Shown: one piece after another, positions 5,841-64,000 of the stretch
Layout: each line of letters begins with the position of its first letter
How positions within the stretch are numbered: the first letter of the stretch is position 1
Assembly: GCA_041661545.1 (NCBI GenBank)
Contig: JBAZUH010000001.1
Coordinates: 211,877-275,876 of the forward strand
Direction of reading: 5' to 3'
DNA: 64,000 bases
DNA from: Candidatus Staskawiczbacteria bacterium
Lineage (GTDB): Bacteria; Patescibacteriota; Minisyncoccia; Minisyncoccales; Staskawiczbacteraceae
The notes under the pieces: model-generated
What the model was told of the DNA's origin: nothing
Seen by the model: only the letters and a program-made list of their open reading frames with translations
The model's database searches: none
Translations under genes and position numbers: made by a program

Positions 5841-5854
5841 CGTTCTCTTTTTTT
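5827..5854 (+). terminator. intrinsic terminator of cassette 1
   Basis: ggacgc/gcgttc stem followed by tcttttttt. Confidence 0.6.
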
Positions 5855-5926
5855 GAGTGCGAAATATATTTTCATTAATCGCACGAAACCCCGCCGAAGC
5901 CTTGGCGAAGGCAGGTGCAGTAATTT
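5855..5926 (+). repeat. F element copy A (about 72-nt structured repeat)
   Basis: gagtgcgaaatatattttcattaatcgcacgaaaccccgccgaagccttggcgaaggcaggtgcagtaattt. It matches the reverse complement of 9297-9370 except for a few substitutions and one indel, and abuts the mrdA stop codon. Confidence 0.85.
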
Positions 5927-5927
5927 G

Positions 5928-7859
5928 CTATTTCTCCGTAAAATACCAATTTAAAACGTCTTTAGCTACATTTAATGTGACAACTCCAAAACTATTTACA
6001 CTTTCAACTGTAACAACTAAAACAATTTCGGGATTTTCATATGGAGCAAAAACCGATGACCAAACATTATACGCATCTTTTTTGCCTATTTCGGCGGTTC
6101 CTGTTTTTGCACCCGAAGAAACTGGAAGACTCCTTAAAACCGATGATATGCCATAATCTTCTTTAACGCCATCTCGCATGCCCTCCCTAACTATTTGTAT
6201 GTTTTCTGCATCAATAAAATTACTTCTTATAATTTGTGGTTCAAATTGTTTAACTAGTTGGTTTGAATCTGCAGAAACAACTTTATTTACAATTTGTGGT
6301 TTATATAATGTTCCGCCATTGGCAATTGCACAATAAGCCGATGCAACCTGCAAAGGAGTTGTTTGCAAATCTGACTGACCAATTGCAAGGTTATAAGTAT
6401 CTCCATCCCACCATGGTTCACCTTTTACTGTTTTTTTCCATGTTGGATCAGGAATAAACCCAGAAAATTCTCCTGGCAAATCTATGCCAGTTTTTTGATC
6501 CCAACCAAAAAGTGATAAATATTGTTTAATTTTTGTGGGACCCAGTCCTTGCTGACCCTCATAACCACCGCCCACAACATAAAAATAAATGTTAGAAGAA
6601 ACTGCTATTGCTTCTCTCATATCAACCCAACCATGTGGTTTTACTCCCCCATATCTATAAGCTACATTTGGATCGTATTTACTACGAACCAAAATATAAC
6701 CGGGGTCATTTATTTTTTTATCTGGTGAAATTATTTTTTCTTGAAGAGCTGCGGCAGCTTCAAACGGTTTTATTGTAGACCCTGTAGGATATTTTGCTGA
6801 AATAGCTCTATTAAAAAATGGCTGAGATGGGTCGTTTATAATTTTGCTATATTCTTCTTGAGATATGCCTCCAGAAAAGGCATTGTCATCATAAGCTGGA
6901 TAAGAAACTAGTGCTAAAACAGCTCCTGTTCGTGGATCCATTGCAACTGCAGCCCCCTTTTTACCTCCCATTTTTTTTATACTATCAGCCAGAGAATTAT
7001 AAATTCTTGTTTGCAGTTCTGCGTCTATATTAAGAACTAAATTATTGCCCGGAATAGATGGCACAGATATTTGTTTTTCATCTTGTGCATATGCTTGAGC
7101 GGGTTTTAAATTTATTAGTTTAGATTGACCTGGAGTTCCTCTTAAATAACTCTCGTAATATTTTTCTAAACCTGTTTTTCCAATGTAATCATTTATAGAA
7201 TAGCCCCTGCTATCAGAATACTCATCTTTGTTAATTCTGGCTGTATAACCTAAAACTTGAGAAAAAATTGGGCCTAAAACATATTCTCTTGAAGTGTTTT
7301 GTTGAATTCTACAACCTTTTAAATCTTCTATTTTTGTTTCTAGCAATAAAAGTTTTTCGTGGCTCATACTATCTACTAATAAAACATCCGATGATTCTGT
7401 TTTTTGAATTTTATCTAATATTTCGTAGCTACTTATGCCAACAATATTAGAAATATCGTCAATTTCTTGATTAATTGCATTTGAAGACACCGAAAAATAG
7501 GCTCTATCACAAATTAGGTCGTATGCTGGAGAGTTTAAAACAAGTTTTTTCATATTCTTGTCGTAAACTATTCCTCTTATAGGAACAATTAAATTAACAC
7601 TGCCTTTATTGTTTTCTGCTTGCGTGTGTAATTTTTTACCACTTATAATTTGCAAATAAAAAACTTTAGAAAATAATATAATTGCTAAAATAAAAAAAAT
7701 ACCAAACAATATGTGAGATATTCTTTCTTTTATAGGCACTTCAAATTTTTTTTCTGACAAACCAAGCTCTTCTTCTTTAGACTGAGCTAATTTATCCAAA
7801 AAAACCTCATGAGGTTCTATATCAACATTTGATTTTTTTATTTTGTAAATTTTAGCCAT
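5928..7859 (-). CDS. mrdA: penicillin-binding protein 2 (elongasome transpeptidase)
   Basis: 643-aa ORF with an N-terminal TM helix, STIKP (SxxK), SSN and KTGT motifs, and mreC-mreD-mrdA synteny. Confidence 0.9.
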   Translation of the reverse strand: MAKIYKIKKSNVDIEPHEVFLDKLAQSKEEELGLSEKKFEVPIKERISHILFGIFFILAIILFSKVFYLQIISGKKLHTQAENNKGSVNLIVPIRGIVYDKNMKKLVLNSPAYDLICDRAYFSVSSNAINQEIDDISNIVGISSYEILDKIQKTESSDVLLVDSMSHEKLLLLETKIEDLKGCRIQQNTSREYVLGPIFSQVLGYTARINKDEYSDSRGYSINDYIGKTGLEKYYESYLRGTPGQSKLINLKPAQAYAQDEKQISVPSIPGNNLVLNIDAELQTRIYNSLADSIKKMGGKKGAAVAMDPRTGAVLALVSYPAYDDNAFSGGISQEEYSKIINDPSQPFFNRAISAKYPTGSTIKPFEAAAALQEKIISPDKKINDPGYILVRSKYDPNVAYRYGGVKPHGWVDMREAIAVSSNIYFYVVGGGYEGQQGLGPTKIKQYLSLFGWDQKTGIDLPGEFSGFIPDPTWKKTVKGEPWWDGDTYNLAIGQSDLQTTPLQVASAYCAIANGGTLYKPQIVNKVVSADSNQLVKQFEPQIIRSNFIDAENIQIVREGMRDGVKEDYGISSVLRSLPVSSGAKTGTAEIGKKDAYNVWSSVFAPYENPEIVLVVTVESVNSFGVVTLNVAKDVLNWYFTEK

Positions 7860-9284: not shown

Positions 9285-9296
9285 ATTTTATTCAGT

Positions 9297-9370
9297 AAAT
9301 TACTGCACCCGCCTTCGCCAAGGCTTCGGCGAGGTTTCGTGCGATTAATGAAAACATATATTTCGCACTC
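9297..9370 (-). repeat. F element copy B (inverted relative to copy A)
   Basis: The reverse complement reads gagtgcgaaatatatgttttcattaatcgcacgaaacctcgccgaagccttggcgaaggcgggtgcagtaattt. Confidence 0.85.
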
Positions 9371-9398
9371 AAAAAAAATGCCCACTTGGTTATTGGGC
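9371..9398 (-). terminator. intrinsic terminator of cassette 2
   Basis: Minus strand gccca...tgggc stem followed by a T8 run, directly followed by F copy B. Confidence 0.6.
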
Positions 9399-17044: not shown

Positions 17045-17212
17045 ATATCTAGAGTATGAAGCCAAGTACTCTTGCAAGATAAAAGGATTGTTTCGTGTCT
17101 TTGCGGGCACATCGCCTTTGCGGGCGAATAAACAATCTGGGTACAGAGCCCTATCTTGTACTTGAACGGCACATTGACACAACGACAACCGCCCCAATGG
17201 GGCACCAAACAA

Positions 17213-17962
17213 ATGACAAAGATAGTGACTGCAGCGTCTCCCCAGAGGGAGCAACTGACGGACAGCCAAGCCAATAGTCTCGCCCTCGGAGTCATCGGAT
17301 ATCACTTCACCACGGCGCTAATCGCCTGGCTGAAAAATCCGAAAATCGCTGACTTCCGCGACGACGCGGAGTCCTGTTTCTTGAAAGTCGAGAAACGGGC
17401 AAAGGCATGGGGCTGGTTGGCCTTCTGGGTCGGCCTCACCATCGGGTTCTTAGGCATCGCAGTATGCGAAGGCATCACCCGTGGTTTTGTCGAAGCCTTC
17501 TTCCACGGATGGTTGATGCAGGCGTCGGCGATAATCGGCGTGCTAACGCTGATTATCGCCTTCTTCTACGGATTTGGCTACGAGCTCGGCTCGAATCGTC
17601 GGCCGGGTGACACAACCCGAATGGTAGCCAAGATGTGGAAACCTTGGCGGAAGAAAATCGTTTCCTCGGGGGTACTTTCGGACTTCGCCTCTACGCTCAA
17701 ATGGAGGTACAAGGATGCCGAAACCGGATCTATTCTCCTGAGGCAGATCGCGAGTTACTCCTTCGGTGGCAGCGAGCTGGAGATAGTTCTCAAATCGACC
17801 CTCGCCAACCTTGCTGACGAAGCCGTCAAAAACTTCCAGGACGAGGTGCTTGATGGCAGCAAACGTGGCCAGCAACGTCACCGTCAACAGTTCGGCCAGA
17901 TTGACAAGATCGGGCAAGAGCTCGGTTTTGAAAAACTAGACTGGAAACGGCTCGACTCCTAA
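17213..17962 (+). CDS. membrane protein (cassette 4a)
   Basis: The ORF read from ATG 17213 begins MTKIVTAASPQ. It has 3-4 hydrophobic helices and is very GC-rich. Confidence 0.55.
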   Translation: MTKIVTAASPQREQLTDSQANSLALGVIGYHFTTALIAWLKNPKIADFRDDAESCFLKVEKRAKAWGWLAFWVGLTIGFLGIAVCEGITRGFVEAFFHGWLMQASAIIGVLTLIIAFFYGFGYELGSNRRPGDTTRMVAKMWKPWRKKIVSSGVLSDFASTLKWRYKDAETGSILLRQIASYSFGGSELEIVLKSTLANLADEAVKNFQDEVLDGSKRGQQRHRQQFGQIDKIGQELGFEKLDWKRLDS

Positions 17963-18050
17963 CCGAGCAGATAGGGTGCATATCATCTGATACCACCGAG
18001 TAATATCGGGCAGTGATTTGCATCAAAACAAAGAAACTAACAACAACGAA

Positions 18051-18085
18051 AGCGCGTGTGGCTTGGTAAACCCACGCGCTCTTTT
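18051..18085 (+). terminator. terminator of cassette 4a
   Basis: agcgcgtgtgg...cccacgcgct stem followed by cttttaat. Confidence 0.5.
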
Positions 18086-18108
18086 AATACATTTAGCATT
18101 ATTCACAG

Positions 18109-18137
18109 TTGACACAAAGCTTTTTATATAGTATAAA
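18109..18137 (+). promoter_or_regulatory. promoter of cassette 4b
   Basis: TTGACA, 17 nt, TATAAA. Confidence 0.5.
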
Positions 18138-18195
18138 GATTATGGAACATTTACAAGATAAATGAGTTTGGCGAGTGCCAACACGAAACTTCCAG

Positions 18196-18549
18196 ATGTT
18201 CCAAACGTCCAAACAACATATAAACGCCATGTGCAAAATCGCCATCCAGGAACTCCCCCTCGTTTCCCACAGCCCGCGGTGTGCCTGTGGGAAAACGGCC
18301 ATCCAAAAGGCCGTAATCAAAAAACCCACGTTTGTAGTTTCCGTAAACTGCTGCGGTGACGTGGCCTGCGTGCAAGCGGCCCAAAAAAGCGTCGGTGAGA
18401 AGCATCGAGCCCGCCTCGAGGACATCCAACGAGTTCGTCAAGCCAAAGCGGCCCAAAAAGCCGCCGCGCGCGCGGCGAAGAAGGAGAGGTCGTTGCGCGG
18501 CTCCAAAGAGACCTTCGTCGGTAGGGACTTCGATCCCCTGAAGGTCTAA
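18196..18549 (+). CDS. hypothetical Cys-containing protein with a Lys/Ala-rich tail (cassette 4b); frame uncertain
   Basis: This is the longest plus-strand frame between the promoter and terminator. Several overlapping ORFs exist on both strands in this GC-rich stretch. Confidence 0.35.
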   Translation: MFQTSKQHINAMCKIAIQELPLVSHSPRCACGKTAIQKAVIKKPTFVVSVNCCGDVACVQAAQKSVGEKHRARLEDIQRVRQAKAAQKAAARAAKKERSLRGSKETFVGRDFDPLKV

Positions 18550-18575
18550 CCGCCCTCGCCACACATTTCCCCAAA

Positions 18576-18608
18576 GCTCGCATCCCCCCAGATGCGAGCA
18601 ATTTTTTT
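18576..18608 (+). terminator. terminator of cassette 4b
   Basis: gctcgcatc/gatgcgagc stem followed by a T7 run. Confidence 0.7.
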
Positions 18609-18616
18609 GCATAGGC

Positions 18617-18680
18617 ATCCTCCCAAATAAAAGTTTCCGACACGAAAACTTTTACCATTTGGGGGGATATTTTGAGGGAT
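18617..18680 (-). repeat. E element copy 3 (structured repeat with an 11-nt insertion)
   Basis: The reverse complement reads atccctcaaaa[tatccccccaa]atggtaaaagttttcgtgtcggaaacttttatttgggaggat. It lies 8 nt after the terminator T-run. Confidence 0.75.
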
Positions 18681-19015: not shown

Positions 19016-19120
19016 AGCGAGGCAGTCAATTTTCAGCGTATTTCAGGACACAAAGTGCCTGACCAAGCCATTTAGACGCGAAGCGTATCAATGGCGTTAG
19101 CAGAAAATTGACTGCCGAGC
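19016..19120 (+). repeat. R element copy 1 (105-bp structured repeat with 14-bp terminal inverted repeats)
   Basis: ggcagtcaattttc...gaaaattgactgcc termini. It differs at 4 positions from the copy at 57024-57128. Confidence 0.85.
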
Positions 19121-19126
19121 GAAAAA

Positions 19127-24547: not shown

Positions 24548-24556
24548 ATATTTTTT

Positions 24557-24609
24557 CAGGTTGCCCCTGCCTACGCCAAGGCTACGGCGAGGCAAGCATG
24601 GGCAACCTG
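24557..24609 (+). repeat. intercistronic GC-rich hairpin repeat, copy 1
   Basis: caggttgccc...gggcaacctg 10-bp outer stem enclosing tgcctacgcc-aaggctac-ggcgaggca. Confidence 0.85.
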
Positions 24610-24614
24610 ACACG

Positions 24615-24866
24615 TTAATTATTTTTTTTGATCCACCAATTTTTAAATAAAGAAATTGAAAATGTTGAAATAACAAATCCCAAGGTTGGCACAATGGCAT
24701 TTGCAAAAGGTTTTTCCAGTTTTGCAAAATAGAAAAAAATTACAATAACAATATAGGTTAAAACCGCAACCAAAATTTTCCGCGCCCAGCTTGTTTCCCA
24801 CGCCTTGTCTTGCTCAACTTTTTTGTTTCTTTCTTTTATTAAATTAATTTCTTTCTCAAAATCCAT
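24615..24866 (-). CDS. small two-TM membrane protein
   Basis: 83-aa ORF. Confidence 0.55.
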   Translation of the reverse strand: MDFEKEINLIKERNKKVEQDKAWETSWARKILVAVLTYIVIVIFFYFAKLEKPFANAIVPTLGFVISTFSISLFKNWWIKKNN

Positions 24867-24876
24867 AATTTTATTT

Positions 24877-24935
24877 CCTCAGGTTGCCCCTGCCTACGCC
24901 AAGGCTACGGCGAGGCAAGCATGGGCAACCTGAGG
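24877..24935 (+). repeat. intercistronic GC-rich hairpin repeat, copy 2
   Basis: cctcaggttgcccc...gggcaacctgagg. The interior is identical to copy 1. Confidence 0.85.
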
Positions 24936-24940
24936 TGTTT

Positions 24941-25237
24941 TTAGTTTTTAAATTGAATTACATTAAGACCTTTTTCTATTATTTCTTTTTCTTGGCCAAA
25001 ACTGTCAATTTTAAAATTTAAAACAAAATCAACCTTTTTCTCAATTTTTCTGCCAGTATATTGTTTTGTTTTAGGATTCCACTCTTCTAAAATTAACGTG
25101 TCGCCTTTTTGCACATCAAAATCTGCCAAGCGCAACTCAAACCTCTTTTCTCCTGATATGACCTTTTCAAAATACTCCGGCCAACATTTCCTTCGCCAGG
25201 CCGTAGCCTTGTGCGTAGGCTGGTTCTTTATTTCCAT
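24941..25237 (-). CDS. ASCH/DUF3850-like domain protein
   Basis: Start taken at MEIKNQ. CWPEYFEKVISGEKRFELRLADFDVQKGDTLILEEW is ASCH-like. Confidence 0.6.
   Translation of the reverse strand: MEIKNQPTHKATAWRRKCWPEYFEKVISGEKRFELRLADFDVQKGDTLILEEWNPKTKQYTGRKIEKKVDFVLNFKIDSFGQEKEIIEKGLNVIQFKN
25194..25223 (+). repeat. GC-rich repeat inside the ASCH CDS (encodes KATAW)
   Basis: cgccaggccgtagccttgtgcgtaggctgg. The core gccgtagcc-ttg-gcgtaggc is shared with the intercistronic repeats. Confidence 0.55.
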
Positions 25238-25246
25238 ATTATTTTT

Positions 25247-25299
25247 CAGGTTGCCCCCGCCTACGCCAAGGCTACGGCGAGGCAAGCATGGGCAACCTG
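25247..25299 (+). repeat. intercistronic GC-rich hairpin repeat, copy 3
   Basis: caggttgcccccgcctacgccaaggctacggcgaggcaagcatgggcaacctg. Confidence 0.85.
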
Positions 25300-25326
25300 G
25301 CGAATTTTTATATATTGTTGAATTTT

Positions 25327-27171: not shown

Positions 27172-28752
27172 ATGCAAACATTAACAAAAAAACAAAAACA
27201 AGTTTTCGATTTTATTAATGAATACATATTAGAGAATGGTATCTCCCCTACTTTTGAAGAAATCCGAAAAACACTTGGACTAAAAGCCATATCTACTATA
27301 CATGAACACGTGGGCACGCTTAAAAAGAAGGGCTATCTTGCAAAAGATATAAATTCAATCCGAAACATAACCCCCAAAAAATCCATACGAATAATTATAG
27401 ATATTCCCATTGTGGGGAAAATTGCAGCTGGCAAACCAATAGAGGCCATAGAAGATAACTTGCAAGAAATTATATCTATATCAAATCCAACTATAAAAAG
27501 CTCGAAAGATTATTATGCACTCCGCGTAACTGGCGACAGCATGATTGGCGAAGGCATATTTGATGGCGATATAGTAATAATCAAAAAACAATCTGTAGCT
27601 GAAAATGGGCAAACCGTGGTAGCAATCATAGACGACAACGAGGCCACTCTTAAAAAACTTTATCGAGAAAAAAATAGATTCCGCTTAGAGCCAAGGAATC
27701 CAAGCATGCTCCCTTTTTTTAGAAAAGAAGTTGAAGTCAGGGGGGTAGTTGTTCAAGTAATTAGCAATATTCCTAATAAACCAAAAGAAAAAATATCAAA
27801 AAAGACTAAACACGGATTTAAAACTATTGATCTTTTTGCTGGAATTGGCGGAATACGTATTGGTTTTGAGAGGGCTGGCTTTGAAACAGTTTTTGCAAAT
27901 GACTTTGACGAACCATGCAAAATAACTTACGATTTTAATTTTCCTAGAGTAAAATTAGTGGCTGAAGATATAAGAAAAATCGGCTTAGATGATATTCCTA
28001 AATTTGATTTTTTATTAGGAGGCTTTCCTTGCCAGGCATTTTCTATCGCTGGATATAGAAAAGGATTCAATGACGAAAAAGGACGTGGAAATTTATTTTT
28101 TGATATAGCAAAAATTATTGAAGATAAAAAACCGGAAGGATTTCTTTTAGAAAATGTTAAAAATTTAAAAAGCCACGACGAAGGAAAAACTTTTAAAATA
28201 ATCGAAGAAACTTTAAAAAATTTAGGCTATTATCTAAATGTAAAAATTTTAAACAGCATGGAATATGGCAATATTCCACAAAATAGAGAGAGAATTTATA
28301 TAGTGGGCTTTAAAAATAAAAACTACGCAGATAATTTTAATTTTCCAGAACCAAGAAAACTTACTAAAAAAATTATCGATCTACTCGAGGACAATGTTGT
28401 TGAAAAATATTATTATAACGGCAAACCCCTGTTTGAGAAGCTAAAAAATTTCATAAAAGAGGAAGGAAAAGTTTATCAATGGCGCAGACAATATGTCCGC
28501 GAAAATAAAAGCGGAGTTTGCCCAACATTAACCGCAAATATGGGAATGGGCGGACACAATGTGCCAATTATAAAAGATAAAAAAGGTATAAGAAAACTTA
28601 CCCCTTTAGAGTGCTTTAGAATACAGGGTTTTCCAGAAAACTTTAAACTTCCGCAAATATCAGATTCTTCTCTATACAAGCAAGCTGGAAATTCTGTGAG
28701 TGTTCCAGTTATAGAAGCCGTTGCCACTCAAATGATGAAGGCAATGTCATAA
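27172..28752 (+). CDS. LexA-like repressor (wHTH + S24 autopeptidase) fused to a DNA (cytosine-5) methyltransferase
   Basis: 526-aa single ORF. The N-terminus is LexA-like (LTKKQKQVFDFI...GISPTFEEI). KIAAGKPIEA is the Ala-Gly cleavage site, and GDSM (Ser) and TLKKL (Lys) are the catalytic residues. These are followed by MTase motifs DLFAGIGG (I), GGFPCQAFS (IV), ENVKNL (VI), QNRERIYIVG (VIII) and GNSVSVPV (X). Confidence 0.85.
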   Translation: MQTLTKKQKQVFDFINEYILENGISPTFEEIRKTLGLKAISTIHEHVGTLKKKGYLAKDINSIRNITPKKSIRIIIDIPIVGKIAAGKPIEAIEDNLQEIISISNPTIKSSKDYYALRVTGDSMIGEGIFDGDIVIIKKQSVAENGQTVVAIIDDNEATLKKLYREKNRFRLEPRNPSMLPFFRKEVEVRGVVVQVISNIPNKPKEKISKKTKHGFKTIDLFAGIGGIRIGFERAGFETVFANDFDEPCKITYDFNFPRVKLVAEDIRKIGLDDIPKFDFLLGGFPCQAFSIAGYRKGFNDEKGRGNLFFDIAKIIEDKKPEGFLLENVKNLKSHDEGKTFKIIEETLKNLGYYLNVKILNSMEYGNIPQNRERIYIVGFKNKNYADNFNFPEPRKLTKKIIDLLEDNVVEKYYYNGKPLFEKLKNFIKEEGKVYQWRRQYVRENKSGVCPTLTANMGMGGHNVPIIKDKKGIRKLTPLECFRIQGFPENFKLPQISDSSLYKQAGNSVSVPVIEAVATQMMKAMS

Positions 28753-29699: not shown

Positions 29700-29732
29700 T
29701 CCCGCCCCAGCGGAATCCCCGCTGGGGCGGGA
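29700..29732. repeat. GC-rich perfect hairpin (tcccgccccagcgg-aatc-cccgctggggcggga)
   Basis: Related to the in-CDS elements at 49043 and 57784 (cccgcc...gcgggatcccgc...ggcggg). Confidence 0.7.
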
Positions 29733-31573: not shown

Positions 31574-31647
31574 ATTATTATATGTTAATTATATTATATA
31601 TTTTTACTCTACGCCTAAAAATTAAATTTGGCAAGTAATGTCTATTT

Positions 31648-31700
31648 ATCCCTCAAAAATGGTAGCACTTTTCGTGTCGAAAAGCGCTATTTTTGGGGAT
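31648..31700 (+). repeat. E element copy 1 (53 nt)
   Basis: atccctcaaaaatggtagcacttttcgtgtcgaaaagcgctatttttggggat, 8 nt from terminator D1. Confidence 0.8.
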
Positions 31701-31708
31701 TTTCGTTT

Positions 31709-31746
31709 AAAAAAAGAGCCCAAGGTTGCAGGTGCAACAAGGGGCA
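31709..31746 (-). terminator. terminator D1 (38-bp unit identical to D2)
   Basis: The minus strand reads tgccccttgttgcacctgcaaccttgggctcttttttt, starting 8 nt after the rSAM stop. Confidence 0.75.
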
Positions 31747-31754
31747 CAGAAATA

Positions 31755-33128
31755 TTATATTTGTTTATAAACGTCCCAAATTAACCAATTAAGCACTCCC
31801 AGCGAGTGTTTGCAAAACTTATCGTCAATAGCCCAAATTGTTCCATGCTTAAGAAATGCACTGTAGGCACACCCCCCTCCGCATAAACCAAGTGATGGAC
31901 AATTGAAGCATTGAGGCATTGTAAGCGGGGACCGCCTGCCCCATTCTTGAATTAGAAGATGGTCTGAAAAAATAAAATCTTTAGAAACTTTTCCAAAAAA
32001 GGAATTGCCGCAGCCTACTCCTTCGTGGCAAATGCCCAAAGACCCGTTTGGCGAGATAGCAAGTTGTGCGCCAGTAGCACGACAATCAAAAGGGTGAAGA
32101 ACGCCCTTGCCAATTGCTCTAACTTTGCGCATTATTCTATCTTCGTATAGTCCAATTTCTCGTGCTTTTTCAAAATATTCTAACATTCGCGTTGTAGCAT
32201 GTTCGGTGTAAGAAGCATCAACCATGCGCTCTGCGGTATCTAGCATTAAGTTAAAGTTAACCGTCTGAAATTGATATTGCTGGTGCAAAGTAAGCAGTTC
32301 GTCTAGCTTATCAACGTTGTGCTCGTCAATTGTTGCCGAGATGTTGATGTCTTTACGACCCGCACAATGCAAAAGCTCAATTCCTCTAGTTATGTCGCAG
32401 AAAGTTCCCTTTCCGCCACAATAAACCCTTTTCTGATCGTTAGTTTCTTGAAGTCCATCAAGCGAAACGCAGATTGTGATTTCTGGATGTTGCGCTAAAT
32501 AGCCAGCAATTTCTTCTGTGATCTTTGTTCCGTTGGTAATAAGCAATAAACCGATTTTGAACTCGGCCAGCTCCTTGCCATAATTGTCGTGGATGTATCC
32601 GACGATTTGTTTTATTAACGGGAAAGCAAGCAAGGGCTCACCACCGTAAAAAACGATCGTCTTGTGAAACTTTGTTGGCTTGATATTGGCGAAATACATG
32701 TCAACAGCCTCTTTTGCTATATCCCAGGTCATCGCCTTACTGCCTTTGCATTGTTCTGGCATGTTGCCGTTTATCATGCAATAATGGCACGCCAGATTAC
32801 ACATATCCGTAAGTAGTATAAAAATTGTCTCAAGCGTTGGCTGATAAACATACGTTTTTTGTTTTTCACGCAAAACGCAGTCATCGTCATATTCAACAGG
32901 TACAACCAATTGTTGCTCAATTAATTCAGCAACGATATCATCGACATCATCACCAAACTGACGTAAGTGTTCAAGTGTTGTACCTAATCGCAACTCATTT
33001 AGCAAATCAGCATAGCGCTCCTCTAAAAATAGAAGCGACAAACATAGCGAGTGAAAAACTGCATACGCACCATTTTTTTGTATTACGTGCGTCCATTTAG
33101 ATAATCGAATTGCCTTGTTATCATTCAT
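31755..33128 (-). CDS. radical SAM/SPASM peptide maturase with an N-terminal RRE (PqqD-like) domain
   Basis: 457-aa ORF with the CNLACHYC (CxxxCxxC) cluster and a C-terminal SPASM Cys pattern (CFNCPSLGLCGGGCAYS...CKH). The N-terminal 90 aa or so look like a peptide-recognition element. Confidence 0.8.
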   Translation of the reverse strand: MNDNKAIRLSKWTHVIQKNGAYAVFHSLCLSLLFLEERYADLLNELRLGTTLEHLRQFGDDVDDIVAELIEQQLVVPVEYDDDCVLREKQKTYVYQPTLETIFILLTDMCNLACHYCMINGNMPEQCKGSKAMTWDIAKEAVDMYFANIKPTKFHKTIVFYGGEPLLAFPLIKQIVGYIHDNYGKELAEFKIGLLLITNGTKITEEIAGYLAQHPEITICVSLDGLQETNDQKRVYCGGKGTFCDITRGIELLHCAGRKDINISATIDEHNVDKLDELLTLHQQYQFQTVNFNLMLDTAERMVDASYTEHATTRMLEYFEKAREIGLYEDRIMRKVRAIGKGVLHPFDCRATGAQLAISPNGSLGICHEGVGCGNSFFGKVSKDFIFSDHLLIQEWGRRSPLTMPQCFNCPSLGLCGGGCAYSAFLKHGTIWAIDDKFCKHSLGVLNWLIWDVYKQI

Positions 33129-33174
33129 GATTCTATTTCTTTCTTGGTTGAGGTTTAAGACAGCTAATAAATTG

Positions 33175-33211
33175 GTGGGGTGGCGCTATCCATTGGACCG
33201 CGCCACCCCAC
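33175..33211 (-). terminator. 12-bp GC hairpin between precursor and maturase (putative attenuator)
   Basis: gtggggtggcgc/gcgccaccccac stem 20 nt after the precursor stop, followed by only a weak U-tract. Confidence 0.5.
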
Positions 33212-33231
33212 GAAGAAAGTCGTGCGACCGA

Positions 33232-33333
33232 TTAGTGGCACGAACACCCGCAGGCGCAATTCTGCGCCAACAGCACCGAGGTGCTGATGTTTCCGGCAAC
33301 ACGATCCAAGTGATGTTTAGTTACCTTCTTCAT
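33232..33333 (-). CDS. 33-aa Cys-rich RiPP precursor candidate (not in ORF track)
   Basis: Hand translation gives MKKVTKHHLDRVAGNISTSVLLAQNCACGCSCH*. A GAAAGGAG Shine-Dalgarno lies 5 nt upstream of the ATG, and the ORF sits directly upstream of the rSAM gene. Confidence 0.65.
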   Translation of the reverse strand: MKKVTKHHLDRVAGNISTSVLLAQNCACGCSCH

Positions 33334-33466
33334 CGCTACTCCTTTCTAACCTATTGTCTTTTGTTGGTTTTTTGACTGAGAATCCGCGCGGACACTCAAT
33401 TAACAACATGATCCAAAAACTAACTTGGACAACTAGGATTTTGCATTGATTTCAAAGAGCAATTTA

Positions 33467-33494
33467 ATCTTAGCACTATATTTTATTCTGTCAA
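33467..33494 (-). promoter_or_regulatory. promoter of the precursor-maturase module
   Basis: Minus strand TTGACA, 16 nt, TAAGAT. Confidence 0.45.
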
Positions 33495-33509
33495 TTTTAT
33501 TTTAATTAC

Positions 33510-33547
33510 AAAAAAAGAGCCCAAGGTTGCAGGTGCAACAAGGGGCA
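33510..33547 (-). terminator. terminator D2 (identical to D1)
   Basis: Same 38-bp sequence as 31709-31746, starting 8 nt after the stop of the small TM gene. Confidence 0.75.
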
Positions 33548-33555
33548 TGATGGAA

Positions 33556-33738
33556 CTAGCTGTCCTTACTGCCGTTATTGGGCAACGGTTTAAGAACAAA
33601 AAAATACAAAACAATCGTAGCAACTAATGCTGTTAAGATATAGACGTCGTAGGACTGCACGGTCCAATTTTCAAGGCCCATTAGCTCGCCTAAATATATG
33701 CAAATTCCCAAAAAGACTACTGCAAGGAGCGTTCTCAT
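33556..33738 (-). CDS. small two-TM membrane protein
   Basis: Start taken at MRTLLAVVFLG (60 aa). The upstream part of the tracked ORF overlaps the preceding gene. Confidence 0.45.
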   Translation of the reverse strand: MRTLLAVVFLGICIYLGELMGLENWTVQSYDVYILTALVATIVLYFFVLKPLPNNGSKDS

Positions 33739-33757
33739 ATTTTTTTGCTTTCTTTTC

Positions 33758-34027
33758 TTATCTCTCAGGCGAAACCACAACAGCAACTTCATTATTACTA
33801 TCAGTAACCATATCCGCCCACCGCGCTGGTCTCCCATCGATGGTATATGAATATGCAAAGGTTCTGAACCGGTGACCATCATGAATGCTAGTTGTGACAA
33901 TGTCGCTGATGGTCATCCAACCATTTAACTCAACTTCTAAGGTAGCACCAGGAATGACTAGTTTAATCTTCTTTATGGCAACAGCCACCTCATCATTCTC
34001 GGGAGCAACATCTCGATTTTCTTTCAT
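33758..34027 (-). CDS. small beta-grasp-like (ThiS/MoaD-like pattern, no terminal GG) protein, paralog 2
   Basis: 89-aa ORF. The C-terminus YTIDGRPARWADMVTDSNNEVAVVVSPER is paralogous to that of the upstream ORF. Confidence 0.5.
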   Translation of the reverse strand: MKENRDVAPENDEVAVAIKKIKLVIPGATLEVELNGWMTISDIVTTSIHDGHRFRTFAYSYTIDGRPARWADMVTDSNNEVAVVVSPER

Positions 34028-34048
34028 GATTTTTTTCTATACTACAGT

Positions 34049-34258
34049 TTATTCCGAGGGAAGGAGGGTGACGACTACCTGGTCATTATCGAAAGTAACC
34101 TCCGTTTCCATATCGGCCCTTCTGCCGTCTATGGTCAATTCACAACGGTCGGCGATTTCTTCCAGGTGAGCTACCTTGATTATCGATCCAGCCCTTACAA
34201 TGCCATATATGGTTACTGGCGTTGTACCTCTCGGCGACACAACTTGAATTTGTTTCAT
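34049..34258 (-). CDS. small beta-grasp-like protein, paralog 1
   Basis: Start taken at MKQIQVVSPRG (69 aa). The C-terminus is LTIDGRRADMETEVTFDNDQVVVTLLPSE. An AAAGGA motif lies 7 nt upstream of the start. Confidence 0.5.
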   Translation of the reverse strand: MKQIQVVSPRGTTPVTIYGIVRAGSIIKVAHLEEIADRCELTIDGRRADMETEVTFDNDQVVVTLLPSE

Positions 34259-34373
34259 GGTTTTGTCCTTTCGTAAATTGGGAAAGAGCAAGTGGCTACT
34301 TATCTTTAGTATATCCTACCACAATTTATTATTTTGTAAATAAAAGCACCCGTTTACTGAGTGCTTTTATTTT

Positions 34374-35484: not shown

Positions 35485-35555
35485 AGCGCCTAATTGGATT
35501 TGAACCAATGACATACGCTACGCAGAGCGATGCTCTACCACTGAGCTACAGGCGC
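35485..35555 (-). tRNA. tRNA with an atypical anticodon arm (isotype unresolved; reads GCG/Arg under the C32-U33 rule)
   Basis: Acceptor, D and T arms are good (GCGCCTG...TAGGCGC, GCTCAGTGGTAGAGC, ATTGGTTCAAATCCAAT). By hand the anticodon stem TCGCT/AGCGT encloses only 6 nt (CTGCGT). Confidence 0.55.
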
Positions 35556-35661: not shown

Positions 35662-35703
35662 ATTTTCCAAAATGGTTGGTACCACCTAGTAAAACGACAA
35701 ACG

Positions 35704-35750
35704 CCGCCTAAAAAATTATTTCTAAATTATAAAAATAATTTTTTAGGCGG
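35704..35750 (-). terminator. long AT-rich perfect hairpin downstream of the 16S processing stem
   Basis: ccgcctaaaaaattattt...aaataattttttaggcgg. Confidence 0.4.
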
Positions 35751-36067
35751 TTGTTTGTAATAAGTAAAATTAGTGCTTTAAAGTTGTTTCGAATAAGAAG
35801 AATTTCTAGCGACTCTTCTCAAAACGCTTTTAGTTGAAAATCAGTGCGATTCGACATGCTCATCGAACTGAGCCAATCGAACCGTGCTGATAATTCTAAA
35901 GTCGACTACCTAAATACTATTCTTGCGAATAATATTTTTAAAAAAATGATCCACGACCAGCTTCCGCTAGCCGTGCCTTGTTACGACTTAGCCCCTCTTA
36001 CTGAATCTAGCTTAGGCCCTCTTGCGAGGAACTTCGGCTATCCCCAGCTCGCTTGGCTTGACGGGCG

Positions 36068-36912
36068 ATTATCCTCTAGAAACCTAGAGTTGATGTTCCC
36101 ACCGTACGAGCGGATTTCCCGCATACGGCGAGCTCTAATGCATTTTTTGTTTAATAAGATATAATCTTTTTAAACCAGAACTTGTCAAATGTTCTTTTTT
36201 CTTAATCCTTTTCATTATTTCGCAAAAAATTTTAAAATCGTATGCTTTTGATTTTAAATTTAATTTATTGCGCTTAAAAAATGGAATAATAGTTTCTTCT
36301 AAATCATTTCTATTTGTTACTTCGTATCGGTAACAATTTTGATGGTTTAGCCGTGTATCTTTTTGAAAATACACGTTTCCGCATTCAAAATATTTTTTCA
36401 AATCATATAAAATATCTTTATCTTTTTCTATGAGTTTGATATAAAATCTTGGTTCGGCTTTAACTCTTCTTTCATTTTCTAATTTTTTTGCCGGATTTTT
36501 AATATAAACAGTGAAGCTTCCTTCACCATCTATTAATCCAACAATATAATTAGGATTAAGTGACTTGTTAGAGAGATTCCTTGGCATAATATACTATATT
36601 ATGTTTAATATGAATCAGCTGACTTCTGACGCAGCGTTAGTAGTTTCATTATACTACGTCAGATCTCCCCGGGTCAATATATTTTCTTTTCCTGACATCC
36701 TTAGCTAGGCGTTGTGGTATGTTCTTCACTATGCTCACCGCCGATCATAGCTCGAACGCCTATTTTTATGCTAGGGCTACCATTTGTCGCAAAACCCTCT
36801 GGCGTCTACCTCGCGGTAGTTCGCCTGTTTGTTGACTACTCTCTGTTGAGTCTTAACAACAGAGGAAAAGATTTTAACTTTTTAGAAAATATACCTGCCG
36901 GGCGCGTTTATT
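36068..36912 (-). mobile_element. intron/intervening sequence in 16S rRNA at about E. coli position 1399/1400
   Basis: Exon 1 ends ...GAATACGTTCCTGAGTCTTGTACTCAC and exon 2 resumes CGCCCGTCAAGCC. The insertion splits the universal 1392-1406 block and carries a homing-endonuclease ORF. Confidence 0.85.
36135..36587 (-). CDS. LAGLIDADG homing endonuclease (single-motif type)
   Basis: 150-aa ORF inside the 16S intron. YIVGLIDGEGSF is the LAGLIDADG motif. Confidence 0.85.
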   Translation of the reverse strand: MPRNLSNKSLNPNYIVGLIDGEGSFTVYIKNPAKKLENERRVKAEPRFYIKLIEKDKDILYDLKKYFECGNVYFQKDTRLNHQNCYRYEVTNRNDLEETIIPFFKRNKLNLKSKAYDFKIFCEIMKRIKKKEHLTSSGLKRLYLIKQKMH

Positions 36913-37381
36913 GTGAGTACAAGACTCAGGAACGTATTCATCGCCACGTAGCTGATTGGCGATTACTAGCGATTCCAGCTTCATGAGGGCGAGTTTCAGC
37001 CCTCAATCCGAACTGAGATAGGTTTTGGTGCGATTAATCTCCGCCTTACGGCATCGAAGCGCATTGTACCTACCATTGTACCACGTGTGCGGCCCAGGTC
37101 ATCAAAGGGCCATGCTGATTTGGCGTCATCCTCGCCTTCCTCCCAATTATCTCGGGCAGTCCCCCGTGACATTTAAAACACAGGGCAAGGGTTGCGTTCG
37201 TTACCCGAATTAACGGTACGTCTCAAGACACGAACTGACGACAACCATGCAGCACCTGTCTGCACGTCTTGCGAGGGCTCTACTTTCATAAAGCTTTCGT
37301 GCAGATTTCCAGACCTGGTAAGGTTCTTCGCTTGTTGTCGAATTAAGCCACATGGTCCACCGCTTGTGTGAGTCCCCGTCT

Positions 37382-37413
<32 letters not shown>

Positions 37414-38530
37414 TCCCAGGCGGGATACTTAACGCGTTAGCTTCGCCACATGAAGGGTCGACACTTCATATAGCCAGTATCCATCGTTTACAGCGTGGAC
37501 TACAAGGGTATCTAATCCTTTTTGCTCCCCACGCTTTCGTTCCTCAGTGTCAGGATTGTCCTAGTGAACTGCCTTCGCTTTTGGTGTTCCCGACAATATC
37601 AACGGATTTCACCCCTACTCTGTCGGTTCCGTTCACCCCTAACATCCTCTAGTTTAGCAGTATTGAAAGCATCTCAAAGGTTAAGCCGATGAGTTTTAAC
37701 TTTCAACTTACTATACCACCTACGAACCCTTTACGCCCAATAAATCCGGGTAACGCTCGAGGATTCTGTATTACCGCTCCTGCTGGCACAGAATTAGGAT
37801 CCCCTTATTCATATGGTACTGTCTGGCTTGCGCCTTCCTCCCATATAAAAGAACTTTACACCCCTAAGGGCTTCATCATTCACGTAACGTCGCTCCGTCA
37901 GGCTTTCGCCCATTGCGGAAGATTCTCGACTGCAGCCTCCCGTAGGAGTATGGCCCGTGTCGCAGTGCCATTCTTGGGGGTCGCGCTCTCACGCCCCCTA
38001 CCCGTCATAGACTTGGTGAGCTATTACCTCGCCAACAATCTGATAGGCCGTAGGCCATTCCCAAATCGGCTTGCGCCTTTACCCTTGCGGGATTATGGAG
38101 AATTACCCCGTCTTTCGACGAGCTGTGCTCCAATTTGGGGTATGTACCCACGTGTTACTAAGCCGTTCGCCGGTTGCTATTGCTAGCCCCCTTGACTTGC
38201 ATGCCGGTATCCACGTTACCAGCGTTCACCCTGAGCTAGGATCAAACTCTCAAATAAAACATTTGATGTTTGAATTTCTAGTTATAGAATAAACTACTAA
38301 TGTGTGTCCCGCCTTCACTTAAGTGAAGGCGTGGACTAATTCGAAACAACTTTAAAAAACTAATTTTTGATTAAACTTTAATTTAATCAAACCTTTTGGT
38401 TGTTTACTATTTACTTATTTGCTGATTTTAAAAATGGTTTTAAAATCATGCTCATTATTTTCCTTTCCAAAACTTTTTTTTCAAAAATTGTTGGTAGGTT
38501 TATTTTTCAATTTTCTTTCCGTTCTGAATT

Positions 38531-38564: not shown

Positions 38565-38718
38565 TAAGAAAAAACACCCGCAAAAATATTTAAGTTATTA
38601 AATACTTTTGCGGACGTTTTATATCTTTTGTATAAAAATTTACAAAAGTTTAAATTGTGGAATTAAATTATTTTTTTATTAATTTAATTAATACTATTAC
38701 TTACTGTCTACAAGGTAT

Positions 38719-48262: not shown

Positions 48263-50674
48263 TTATTTTTTGTTTTCTAATTTTTTTTCGGTGTCACTAA
48301 TAGCAATTTTGGTTTTTAAAACTGAGTCGGGGTTTAAAGAAATTGACTCAATCCCCTGCTCAACTAAAAATTGGGCAAAGTCTGAAAAATCGCTTGGGCC
48401 CTGCCCACAAATACCAATATACTTATTGTTATTCTTGCATACTTTTACAGCTTCTTCAATAAGCTCTTTTACTGCTTCGTTTTTTTCGTTTCCAATTGCT
48501 GACAATCCCCCATTGTCTCTATCTAGTCCAAGCGTTAGTTGAGTTAAATCATTAGAACCAATTGAAAATCCATCAAAAATTTCTAAAAACTTTTCAGCTA
48601 AAATTACATTTGCTGGAATTTCACACATTACGTAAACATTGCCTAAAATACCGTTTTCTCTAATAATTTGCATCACTTTTTTGCCCTCGTCTAACGTTCT
48701 ACAAAATGGAACCATGGGTATTACATTATCTAAGCCAAATTCTTCTTGCACTTTTTTCATTGCACGGCATTCTAAAACAAAGGCATCTTTAAATTTTTTA
48801 TCATAATACCTAGAGGCCCCTCTGAACCCAATCATGGGGTTTTCTTCTTCTGGCTCATAATTTTCTCCGCCCAATAAAGACCTATATTCATTTGTTTTAA
48901 AATCAGAGAACCTTACAATTACTGGCTTAGGGTAAAAAGCTGCACCAATTGTTCCTATACCTTCGGCTAATTTGTCTATATAAAACTGAACTTTGTCACT
49001 ATACCCCAAAGTTATAGCATCTATTTTTTTCTTTAGTGTTTTGTCCCGCCCCAAGCGGGATCCCGCTATGGCGGGATAGTTTATTAAAGCGTTTGGATGA
49101 ACTTTTATAGAGTTTATAATTATAAACTCTTCACGGGCCAAACCAACACCATCATTTGGTATAAAACTTAAATTAAATGCATTTGAAGGCTCACCCACGT
49201 TCATTAAAATTTTAACATTGTTGTGGGGAATATTAGAAATATCTGTTTTTTGAATTTCAAATGGAATTATGCCTTCATAGACTTTTCCATTTTCTCCACC
49301 CGAACAGTCTATTGTTATTTCTTGCCCCGATTTTATTATTTTTGTTCCATTATTTGTTCCTACAATTACCGGCACCCCCAACTCTCTGCCAACAATAGCA
49401 GCGTGACAGGTTCTACCACCAGAATCTGTAACAATTGCCGAAGCTAATTTCATTGCCGGCACCCAATCGGGGTCGGTGGCTGTAGTTACTAAAACTTCTC
49501 CTTTTTTAAATTTTCCTATATCTTTTGCACTTAAAATTTTGTTTGCCTTGCCTTGCCCAATCTTACTGCCCACGCTCATACCCTGAGCAACAATTTTTAA
49601 TTTTACATTTCCAATTTTCAATACATAATCTTCTAAAACTTTTAAATTCTTTCTACTTTGCACTGTTTCGGGCCGTGCCTGCACAATATATAATTTTCCA
49701 TCTCTGCCGTCTTTTGCCCACTCCATGTCCATTGATTTTTTATAATGGTCTTCTATGATTATTGACCACTTTGCTAAACTCAAAATTTCTTCGTTATTTA
49801 AAACAAAACTCTCTCTTTCTTTTTTAGTTGTTGCAATATTCTTACAAGGAAGCTTAGGGTTTGTTGTATAAATCATTTTTATCAGTTTGCTTCCAATTCT
49901 TTTTTCTACTATTGGCTTAAACCCTTTTTTAAGCGTAGTTTCAAAAACATAATATTGGTCTGGCTCAACAGCTCCCTGCACAACGTTTTCACCCAAACCA
50001 TAACTAGCATTAATTAAAACAACATCTCCAAACCCAGATTCTGTATCACAAGAAAACATAACTCCCGATGCCCCTAAATCTGCTCTTACCATTTTTTGTA
50101 TTCCAGCTGATAACCCCACTTTTGTATGAGCAAAACCCATTTCTTGCCTATAAACAATGGCCCTGCTTGTAAACAATGATGCAAAACACTTTTTTACAGC
50201 TAACAAAACATTTTCTGCGCCTACAATATTTAAATAAGTTTCTTGTTGACCAGCAAAACTAGCTCCTGGCAAATCTTCTGCAGTTGCCGAAGATCTTACC
50301 GCCACATCTGTATCTTCTGGTCCATATTTACCCGACAATCTCTTATAAGCCAAAATTACATCATCTGCAAATTCTTGTGGTAATTGCGAATTTAAAATTG
50401 ACTCTCTAACTATTTTTCCTTTTTCAGCAAGTTGTAGCAAATTATGAATATCTAAATCTTTTAAAGTGTCTTCAATTTTTTTATCTAATCCAGTTGTTTC
50501 TAAAAAATAAAAATATGCCTCTGCAGTTGTGGCAAAACCAAAAGGCACATTTACTCCTTTAGGAGAAACCGACTTAATCATTTCTCCTAATGAAGCATTT
50601 TTGCCTCCAACCAGAGGAATATCTTTTATGGTTATCTCATCAAACCAAAGTATATTTTTTTTAGGTTTTTCCAT
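48263..50674 (-). CDS. ppsA: phosphoenolpyruvate synthase
   Basis: 803-aa ORF with GGRTCHAAIVGRELG (phosphohistidine) and a C-terminal PEP-utilising TIM domain. It carries an in-frame GC repeat at 49043-49077. Confidence 0.9.
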   Translation of the reverse strand: MEKPKKNILWFDEITIKDIPLVGGKNASLGEMIKSVSPKGVNVPFGFATTAEAYFYFLETTGLDKKIEDTLKDLDIHNLLQLAEKGKIVRESILNSQLPQEFADDVILAYKRLSGKYGPEDTDVAVRSSATAEDLPGASFAGQQETYLNIVGAENVLLAVKKCFASLFTSRAIVYRQEMGFAHTKVGLSAGIQKMVRADLGASGVMFSCDTESGFGDVVLINASYGLGENVVQGAVEPDQYYVFETTLKKGFKPIVEKRIGSKLIKMIYTTNPKLPCKNIATTKKERESFVLNNEEILSLAKWSIIIEDHYKKSMDMEWAKDGRDGKLYIVQARPETVQSRKNLKVLEDYVLKIGNVKLKIVAQGMSVGSKIGQGKANKILSAKDIGKFKKGEVLVTTATDPDWVPAMKLASAIVTDSGGRTCHAAIVGRELGVPVIVGTNNGTKIIKSGQEITIDCSGGENGKVYEGIIPFEIQKTDISNIPHNNVKILMNVGEPSNAFNLSFIPNDGVGLAREEFIIINSIKVHPNALINYPAIAGSRLGRDKTLKKKIDAITLGYSDKVQFYIDKLAEGIGTIGAAFYPKPVIVRFSDFKTNEYRSLLGGENYEPEEENPMIGFRGASRYYDKKFKDAFVLECRAMKKVQEEFGLDNVIPMVPFCRTLDEGKKVMQIIRENGILGNVYVMCEIPANVILAEKFLEIFDGFSIGSNDLTQLTLGLDRDNGGLSAIGNEKNEAVKELIEEAVKVCKNNNKYIGICGQGPSDFSDFAQFLVEQGIESISLNPDSVLKTKIAISDTEKKLENKK
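49043..49077 (+). repeat. GC-rich double-hairpin repeat inside ppsA
   Basis: gtcccgccccaagcgggatcccgctatggcgggat, encoding part of PAIAGSRLGRD. Confidence 0.7.
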
Positions 50675-57023: not shown

Positions 57024-57128
57024 AGCGAGGCAGTTAATTTTCAGCGTATTTCAGGACACGAAGTGCCTGACTAAGCCGTTTAGACGCGAAGCGTATCAAT
57101 GGCGTTAGCAGAAAATTGACTGCCGAGC
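57024..57128 (+). repeat. R element copy 2
   Basis: About 96% identical to 19016-19120 and in the same orientation. It lies between eno and gpmA. Confidence 0.85.
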
Positions 57129-57152
57129 AAAAAAAATTTATTTGCCAAGCGT

Positions 57153-63040: not shown

Positions 63041-63093
63041 ATCCCTCAAAAATGGTAGCAATTTGTGTGTCACAAATCGCTATTTTTGGGGAT
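63041..63093 (+). repeat. E element copy 2 (53 nt)
   Basis: atccctcaaaaatggtagcaatttgtgtgtcacaaatcgctatttttggggat, 8 nt from the cassette-9 terminator. Confidence 0.8.
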
Positions 63094-63101
63094 TTTCATT
63101 T

Positions 63102-63129
63102 AAAAAAAAGCTACGATGTCACACGTAGC
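63102..63129 (-). terminator. terminator of cassette 9
   Basis: gctacg/cgtagc stem followed by a T8 run on the minus strand. Confidence 0.65.
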
Positions 63130-63169
63130 GAAGTCTTTGTCGCACAATGCGTCAAAGACCCATAAAATC

Positions 63170-63883: not shown

Positions 63884-63920
63884 GGCTTTTTCCTTTCTTT
63901 CTAGCGCAGGTTCTTTCTTG

Positions 63921-64000
63921 TTAGTCTGTATCTTCTCCGCCTTCTTTAAGGGCTAATCGGTCGCCAGGGTGGCCAATAACAATATCCTTGTGAGGCGGAT
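63921..64000 (-). CDS. C-terminal fragment of an upstream cassette-9 gene (5' end beyond window)
   Basis: Hand translation gives ...PPHKDIVIGHPGDRLALKEGGEDTD*. GC-rich, same strand. Confidence 0.3.
   Translation of the reverse strand, partial: PPHKDIVIGHPGDRLALKEGGEDTD

Follow-up and report, generated by a model that had tools for sequence, protein, structure and literature searches.

A hairpin-forming dispersed intergenic repeat, probably copied as DNA, in Candidatus Staskawiczbacteria

Introduction

Genomes of CPR bacteria (Patescibacteria) are tiny and are usually held to be repeat-poor. A 64-kb stretch of a 738-kb Candidatus Staskawiczbacteria genome (the window) contains three copies of a short palindromic sequence, here called E, spaced 13 to 31 kb apart among housekeeping genes. 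Each copy lies 8 nt beyond a terminator T-run. What kind of element is E, and what ties it to these terminators? The first-pass annotation suggested that E recalls the attC sites of integrons in position and architecture and may be the recombination or recognition site through which GC-rich gene cassettes are acquired. Comparison with related genomes led us to a different reading. With a probability of about 0.6, we consider E to be a dispersed, non-coding hairpin repeat specific to the Candidatus Staskawiczbacteria lineage, similar in kind to REP/BIME, Correia, BOX, or MITE elements, which is copied as DNA and inserted at the edges of A/T tracts.

Results

Repeat units in the window

The window is AT-rich (about 32% GC outside its GC-rich islands) and carries 23S-5S and 16S rRNA genes and four tRNAs. 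Its FtsZ matches, at 100% identity, a protein encoded on a 737,971-bp contig of a Candidatus Staskawiczbacteria MAG. Covariance model R1 was built from the 21 distinct units described below and was also run over the window with filters off. It recovers the three copies where the first-pass annotation had placed them (Table 1), with E-values of about 1e-19 to 1e-21, and nothing else convincing. The next matches (35697-35760 and 38568-38624, at most 24 bits) were rejected because they read as AT-rich terminator hairpins. The pattern AAATGGTA-N10-TGT-N10-TATTT has three exact occurrences in the window, and five occurrences at two mismatches compared to 0.32 expected.

Table 1. Positions of the three E copies in the window and of the features adjoining them.
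Feature	Position	Strand	Basis and remarks
E1 hairpin core, type A	31648..31700	+	Sequence; model match 31646-31708, 71.4 bits
E1 structure			Outer stem ATCCC(T)CAAAA/TTTTGGGGAT, 3-nt bulge, inner stem of 12 bp, loop TGT
E1 tail TTTCGTTT, 8 nt	31701..31708	+	Part of the repeat unit, not a terminator spacer
A7 beyond E1 tail	31709..31715
A7 and imperfect GC-rich hairpin, presumed terminator of radical-SAM gene	31709..31746	-	Sequence
Radical-SAM gene	31755..33128	-	E1 abuts the A/T tract of its presumed terminator
E2 hairpin core, type A	63041..63093	+	Sequence; model match 70.9 bits
E2 tail TTTCATTT, 8 nt	63094..63101	+
A8 beyond E2 tail	63102..63109
A8/T8 run and hairpin, terminator of PRTase-like gene	63102..63129	-	Terminator scan (63110-63129)
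PRTase-like gene, 237 aa	63170..63883	-
E3 hairpin core, type B (ATCCCCCCAAATGG...TATTTGGGAGGAT)	18617..18668	-	Sequence; model match 18609-18671, 78.5 bits
E3 tail GCCTATGC, 8 nt	18609..18616	-	Identical octamer after 11 of 21 listed loci, in unrelated contexts
A7 (read on -) beyond E3 tail	18602..18608
Type-A 5' arm remnant ATCCCTCAAAAT, 12 nt, after tail-like GTTTATGC	18669..18680	-	Sequence; compare the A/B arrays of L039
Terminator of GC-rich gene, 9-bp stem and T7	18576..18608	+	Terminator scan (18576-18599); E3 abuts the T-run
GC-rich gene, 124 aa	18175..18549	+

The E unit is about 61 nt long and consists of an imperfect palindrome of roughly 53 nt followed by a conserved 8-nt 3' tail. 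An outer stem of 10 to 11 bp, with one conserved mismatch or bulge, leads to a junction with an invariant unpaired TGG (a 3-nt bulge) within AAATGGTA...TATTT. Beyond it follow 12 bp of inner stem, free in sequence, closed by a 3-nt loop. Invariant across units are AAATGGTA, TATTT, the TCC...GGA foot, and the outer-stem mismatch or bulge. Inside the stem, directly after the TGG bulge, 15 of the 21 units have GGTAG and the remainder GGTAA.

Two unit types can be told apart by their tails: type B has GCCTATGC, with at most one base changed, and type A has TTTCATTT or TTTCRTTT. The E1 tail is identical at seven of eight positions to the E2 tail and to the tail of unit 1 in the L039 array. The octamer is kept across unrelated loci, and in arrays it serves as the linker between units. 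We read it as E's own tail and not as a spacing rule, which replaces the view that the 8 nt measure a distance from a terminator. The ATG within GCCTATGC was considered as a start codon and rejected, its frame with the downstream gene being inconsistent between loci. A candidate promoter within E (TTGCCA-N17-TATG..) was rejected on inspection because it overlaps a start codon, and the promoter-like site of the SPFH gene lies outside E.

All three copies fold far more stably than their shuffles, both as RNA (z -3.7 to -8.4) and as DNA (z -4.4 to -8.0). Values for E1 are -5.2 (+) and -8.4 (-) as RNA, and -6.3 and -8.0 as DNA. E1 and E2 together form a 73-nt repeat with 88% identity, the E1 copy spanning 31643-31715. 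The terminator adjoining E1 (31716-31746) is an imperfect hairpin and was not called by the terminator scan. Next to E3, the 12-nt arm is the trace of a former adjoining unit.

The E3 locus, including host gene, E3, and the GC-rich junction, has identical sequence in a Logan short-read assembly (L185, SRR18595301). The E3 junctions are thus not assembly chimeras. Short-read contigs L055 and L056 break within E2 with a 30-nt overlap, as expected of a repeat.

Repeat family and covariation

Pattern scans added about 17 further loci from Candidatus Staskawiczbacteria MAGs and metagenomes. The scan of species-representative genomes gave 16 matches, 14 at chance level and two real (L012 and L016, both Staskawiczbacteria). 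Of 38 loci from the metagenome scan, about 15 are real, L039 among these. Together with the window, these two MAGs and about 15 metagenome contigs yielded an alignment of 21 distinct units, which is gapless; unit length is constant.

The paired stem differences between the window copies (cttttcg/cgaaaag, atttgtg/cacaaat, and agttttcg/cggaaact), which the first-pass annotation took as a sign of selection on secondary structure, are real and extend across the wider family. In the 21 units, 93.9% of stem cells are paired; shuffles reach 79.5%, and sliding the partners gives 40-50%. Double-sided changes are seen in 13 of the 22 pairs. The covariation score is 0.437 compared to 0.155, a value reached by none of 500 shuffles. 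The hairpin is therefore maintained through compensatory changes. The 13 G-U pairs are balanced by 11 A-C mismatches (all at one position). The counts thus show no bias to either strand, as suits an element acting at the DNA level. Besides selection, arm-to-arm template switching in DNA palindromes also yields compensatory changes, as established for quasipalindromes. Covariation is thus no proof of RNA function.

No Rfam family matches E at gathering thresholds, and permissive Rfam scans returned generic hairpin (miRNA-like) matches far below threshold. Among IMG/VR viral contigs, 116 pattern matches were found, none with an E-like fold. Our literature search on REP or MITE elements in CPR bacteria found nothing relevant. 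E is previously uncatalogued, in the sense that it is in no catalogue searched here.

Copies of E are single at most loci. The sole array found is in L039 (748-1182), where seven head-to-tail units of three types follow an A-B'-B pattern with a 181-nt period. This array is flanked by a terminator on one side and on the other by a gene with a PaaX central, Cas2-like domain. The units of L024 and L028 differ by one tail base, and their downstream genes differ. Three copies per 64 kb would correspond to ~35 per 738-kb genome at constant density. The strict pattern, however, occurs only once each in the genomes of L012 and L016, so copy number looks low.

Genomic context

E is strictly intergenic. 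Most copies lie between housekeeping genes or directly ahead of tRNAs, with no GC-rich unit nearby. In L012 the rpoC stop codon is followed by E and then by rpoC's own terminator. In L016 the order is cca, E, 8 nt, and tRNA-Pro, and in L044 (probably also in L017 and L050) it is greA, E, 8 nt, and tRNA-Ala. Eight loci (L020, L024, L028, L032, L034, L036, L040, and L045) have E 0-16 nt ahead of the starts of dnaK, gatC, and other genes. A pattern like that of the window, with a 55-60% GC block, is seen in L053 only and more weakly in L026 and L039. The proposal that E always lies 8 nt past a cassette terminator therefore holds for all three window copies and fails for the family at large, most further members of which are unrelated to GC-rich units. 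E occurs in both orientations relative to transcription, in agreement with the earlier observation that its orientation is independent of host genes.

What most of the loci share is the edge at which the unit ends. An A-run of at least four directly follows the tail at 14 of the 21 loci, compared to a background of 4.0% (binomial P about 3e-15). The loci without it are four tRNA-adjacent loci, representing two distinct sites (tRNA-Pro and tRNA-Ala), and three others. At some loci the A-run is the next gene's leader (GCCTATGC-AAAAAT-ATG), and at others it corresponds to the T-run of a terminator, either convergent or upstream. An intrinsic terminator seen from its far side offers an A-run, which explains why the window copies lie "8 nt beyond" T-runs. 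At 33510-33547 there is an exact 38-nt duplicate of the E1-side terminator (31709-31746), and it starts at the same A-run without E, which places the unit boundary exactly at the A-run. No direct repeat that could be a target-site duplication flanks any of the 21 loci.

The two 38-nt copies, each an A-run plus terminator hairpin, are also of interest as a direct repeat that brackets a 1.8-kb radical-SAM module. Short-read contig L186 has its two ends inside the two copies, so members of the population could differ in whether, or how often, they carry this module. Region 33130-34340, which precedes the radical-SAM gene, has a GC-rich stretch of 380 nt as well as a pair of paralogous small ORFs (33758-34027 and 34049-34291, -) that lack Pfam matches. 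Together these could form a peptide-modification (RiPP-like) cluster.

Orthologous sites in sister species

Three contigs comparable at ftsZ (L173, L175, and L176) come from different species, with FtsZ proteins 70-74% identical. Upstream of ftsZ they carry the same OMP-decarboxylase gene as the window and a gene of 235-252 aa; a terminator and then the conserved ftsZ promoter region follow, and E is missing. GC content of these upstream genes is 41-49%, compared to 33-35% for their neighbours. In the window, the E2 unit occupies precisely the place between this promoter region and the T-run. In the interval from the 100-aa gene to rluA, contigs L180 and L182-184 have homologous GC-rich genes (52-55% GC, 40-65% amino-acid identity), reversed and without E, and the islands of L180 and L182 end in terminators similar to the one beside E3.

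Differences were also found at other sites. The greA-tRNA-Ala gap is 8 nt in the window, whereas in L044 it contains an E unit. Downstream of ftsZ, a position without E in the window, L173 carries a decayed copy (37.6 bits). At the SPFH locus, comparators L178 and L179 are non-syntenic and say nothing on E1. E units are thus gained and lost at orthologous intergenic sites, although between-species comparators cannot strictly split loss from gain.

Because the GC-rich genes are kept in the same slots without E, the islands are old and E would be the newcomer. The GC-rich islands beside E2 and E3 are thus conserved, ancestral residents of the lineage. E is found at one end only of each island, the GC-rich units carry their own TTGACA-N17-TATAAT promoters, and tblastx between islands detected no similarity and no shared genes. 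Since sister species keep both the genes and their terminators without E, a role of E as the site through which GC-rich cassettes were acquired is contradicted.

The islands themselves (17050-18610, and 63100-64000 continuing in L056) have 47-58% GC compared to roughly 33% for the genome, with consensus sigma-70 promoters and strong terminators, and their synteny is kept across Staskawiczbacteria species. The island upstream of ftsZ encodes an OMP decarboxylase and a PRTase-like protein, and no Pfam domain is present in the genes that lie from the 100-aa gene to rluA. The compositional contrast of these islands is long-lived.

Discussion

Small dispersed repeats are recognized by presence or absence at orthologous sites and by similar copies at non-homologous sites, and both are found for E. 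Gain and loss, near-identical copies (E1 and E2; L024 and L028), remnants, arrays, both orientations, and intergenic location all argue for a repeat. Its mobility is inferred from presence or absence and copy similarity. Among about 66 window ORFs (almost every one of 90 aa or more) and the genes beside the other copies, we found no transposase, integrase, or HUH enzyme, and the 64 kb read of the 738-kb genome contain no RAYT/Y1 transposase gene.

The closest functional analogue of E is the REP/RAYT system, in which REP/BIME elements are paired with an IS200/IS605-like Y1 HUH enzyme. Like REP and BIME elements, E units are short extragenic imperfect palindromes with compensatory stem changes, located after genes and between cistrons, singly or in clusters. 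Conserved unpaired bases, which give strand identity in REP elements, may do so in E as well. E also has a sharp end, always 8 nt away from the hairpin, and lacks a target duplication. Recognition of a single-stranded hairpin through unpaired bases, as proposed here for E, is likewise how the ends of REP/RAYT and IS200/IS605 elements work. A GTAG stands at the foot of the inner hairpin in most E copies, but it lies inside the stem and is partly base-paired. There are differences as well: E is 53 nt compared to 20-40 nt, its copy number looks low, its clusters are head-to-tail and not inverted pairs, no RAYT gene was seen in the 64-kb window, and the host is a CPR bacterium.

Correia/NEMIS elements of Neisseria, BOX and RUP of Streptococcus, RPE of Rickettsia, and MITE-like elements are likewise small, non-coding, structured intergenic repeats that are polymorphic between relatives. 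Repeats of these families have sometimes been co-opted as terminators, promoters, or RNase sites, and BOX, like E, is modular with tandem sub-units. E has no sequence similarity to Correia, BOX, RUP, or RPE and no visible TA or other target duplication. Its whole unit is one hairpin plus an 8-nt tail, and its preference for A-run edges is marked. E is not a MITE in the sense of terminal inverted repeats with a target-site duplication; it is a single palindrome with an A-rich 5' flank on one side and the 8-nt tail on the other.

The mechanism we propose is that E is copied as DNA by a factor encoded elsewhere and inserted at the edge of an A/T tract. The likely intermediate would be a single-stranded hairpin, its strand identity provided by the conserved bulge and mismatch. 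Such an intermediate would fit the sharp tail end, the absent target duplication, and the arrays at one tract, which repeated insertion at that tract would build. The stems may be kept up by selection for recognition or by arm-to-arm correction inside the palindrome. An inserted E would be tolerated and may serve as an extra hairpin or terminator in transcripts.

The main alternative on the RNA side is that E is chiefly a functional hairpin, such as an mRNA 3'-end stabilizer, a site of processing between cistrons and tRNAs, or an auxiliary bidirectional terminator or insulator, and that this function, not selfish transposition, drives its spread and retention. We consider this unlikely, although several features suit it. 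In at least 13 of the 21 loci the sense strand is the one with AAATGGTA; there a stop codon lies 0-10 nt upstream of E and, downstream, either the next start codon follows after 0-7 nt or a tRNA 5' end after exactly 8 nt. AGGA or GGAGGA in the 3' arm lies 8-16 nt ahead of start codons. The transcribed strand folds best at E1 and E2 (z -8.4 and -6.2), and there the type-A inner hairpin with CCAUUUUUG is called terminator-like on that strand. At E1, E2, L039, and L053, however, the AAATGGTA strand is antisense to both neighbours, so E stands both ways relative to transcription. G-U and A-C counts show no strand preference, start-codon spacing varies and frame is inconsistent, and the seven-unit array has no obvious cis function. 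Orthologous sites in sister species are without E, indicating that no neighbour gene needs it. A side role of E in RNA, as an extra hairpin or terminator or as an intercistronic stabilizer, is possible and, given this absence, would be non-essential. Strand neutrality could also point to a DNA-level binding or cruciform site for a host nucleoid, topology, or replication protein, spread by recombination with no dedicated mobility machinery. The invariant AAATGGTA...TATTT junction and the intergenic location throughout are consistent with this. Stems that differ freely within one genome make a sequence-reading dimer unlikely, the sites are not conserved between species, and there is no candidate protein; we give this explanation very little weight.

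The attC-like model, with E as a site at the 3' end of mobile GC-rich cassettes used for their acquisition, was the first reading of the window. All three window copies, L053, L026, and L039 abut a gene's terminator, and for the window copies and L053 the GC content of that gene clearly exceeds that of the DNA around it. As in attC, the imperfect hairpin is about 55-65 nt with conserved extrahelical bases and a free stem, 3' of a gene, and the exact 38-nt direct repeat around the radical-SAM module also suits the model. The comparison goes no further. The attC cores R'' (RYYYAAC) and R' (GTTRRRY) are absent: E ends in ATCCC.../...GGGAT plus TTTCRTTT or GCCTATGC, and the three copies contain no GTTRRRY. 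No integrase was found among the roughly 66 window ORFs, and the window has no array of promoterless cassettes served by intI, attI, and Pc, its GC-rich units having their own promoters. E stands at a single end of each island, most E copies adjoin no cassette or GC-rich gene, and sister species lacking E have syntenic homologues of the islands beside E2 and E3, which does not fit co-mobility of site and cassette. The inference of GC-rich gene acquisition through an integron-like site was tempting but wrong, and we regard the model as highly improbable. Still harder to credit is that E units are stem-loop tigRNA guide RNAs. TasR and stem-loop TIGR arrays were characterized from Ca. Staskawiczbacteria (bioRxiv 10.64898/2026.09.09.750476). 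TIGR-Tas is thus known in the lineage and small arrays are possible; E shares tandem units (seven in L039), conserved edges, palindromic stems, and variable interiors. TIGRFinder defines a unit by two intervals of box C (CNA), a 9-nt spacer, and box D (YG), at most 15 nt apart, with a stem of at least 5 bp and tas nearby. A regular expression of this definition has no match in E1-E3 on either strand. The variable segments of E are fully complementary to each other, so there are no two independent unpaired 9-nt spacers; the stem base has no CUU processing motif, no Nop-domain or Tas gene was found in the roughly 66 window ORFs scanned or beside other copies, and copies are singly dispersed among housekeeping genes.

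A more specific form of DNA-level copying would make E the substrate of an undescribed CPR single-strand DNA insertion system acting at A/T-tract edges (for example, the last T of a terminator) with no target duplication, repeated insertion giving arrays; or the arrays might be processed into trans-acting small hairpin RNAs. Both are improbable. Either, if true, would mean that symbiont genomes of very small size and few repeats have a new mechanism of mobility or of RNA action.

As a dispersed repeat, E is a REP/MITE-like element in an unusual host. A family with gain and loss is a marker for recent genome dynamics, and it explains assembly breaks in these MAGs. E is also a tractable substrate for finding its mobilizing enzyme.

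Other features of the window

The window contains other structured repeats. A second intergenic repeat of ~107 nt has two copies (19016-19126 and 57024-57134) that are 95% identical. Its terminal inverted repeats are 14 nt long (GGCAGTCAATTTTC / GAAAATTGACTGCC), it folds as DNA with z = -8.0, and an A-run comes after it; one copy is about 340 nt from E3. GC-rich hairpin repeats with core GCCTACGCCAAGGCTACGGCGAGGC are present at 24549-24626, 24872-24949, and 25239-25316, spaced 323-367 nt around small genes, and also at 9304-9334 and 5889-5919. The same family includes an 82-nt inverted pair (5848-5929 / 9294-9375), 3.4 kb apart, which flanks the PBP/MreC region. A 33-nt GC-rich perfect or near-perfect palindrome, TCCCGCC..GCGGGATCCCGC..GGCGGGA, has three copies (29700-29732, 49044-49076, and 57785-57817).

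Among the few + strand genes of the window is a 526-aa ORF (27172-28752, +) in which a LexA DNA-binding domain, peptidase S24, and a C-5 cytosine DNA methylase are joined, an unusual fusion. A LAGLIDADG homing-endonuclease ORF (36135-36587, -) lies just 3' of the 16S rRNA gene (36861-38257, -). A distance of 23 kb separates the 16S from the 23S-5S genes, and the 16S region is enclosed by an inverted repeat of 32 nt (35766-35797 / 38336-38367). Rfam calls a tRNA at 35485-35555 (-) with 58 bits, for which ARAGORN gives an anticodon of only two nucleotides ("gc").
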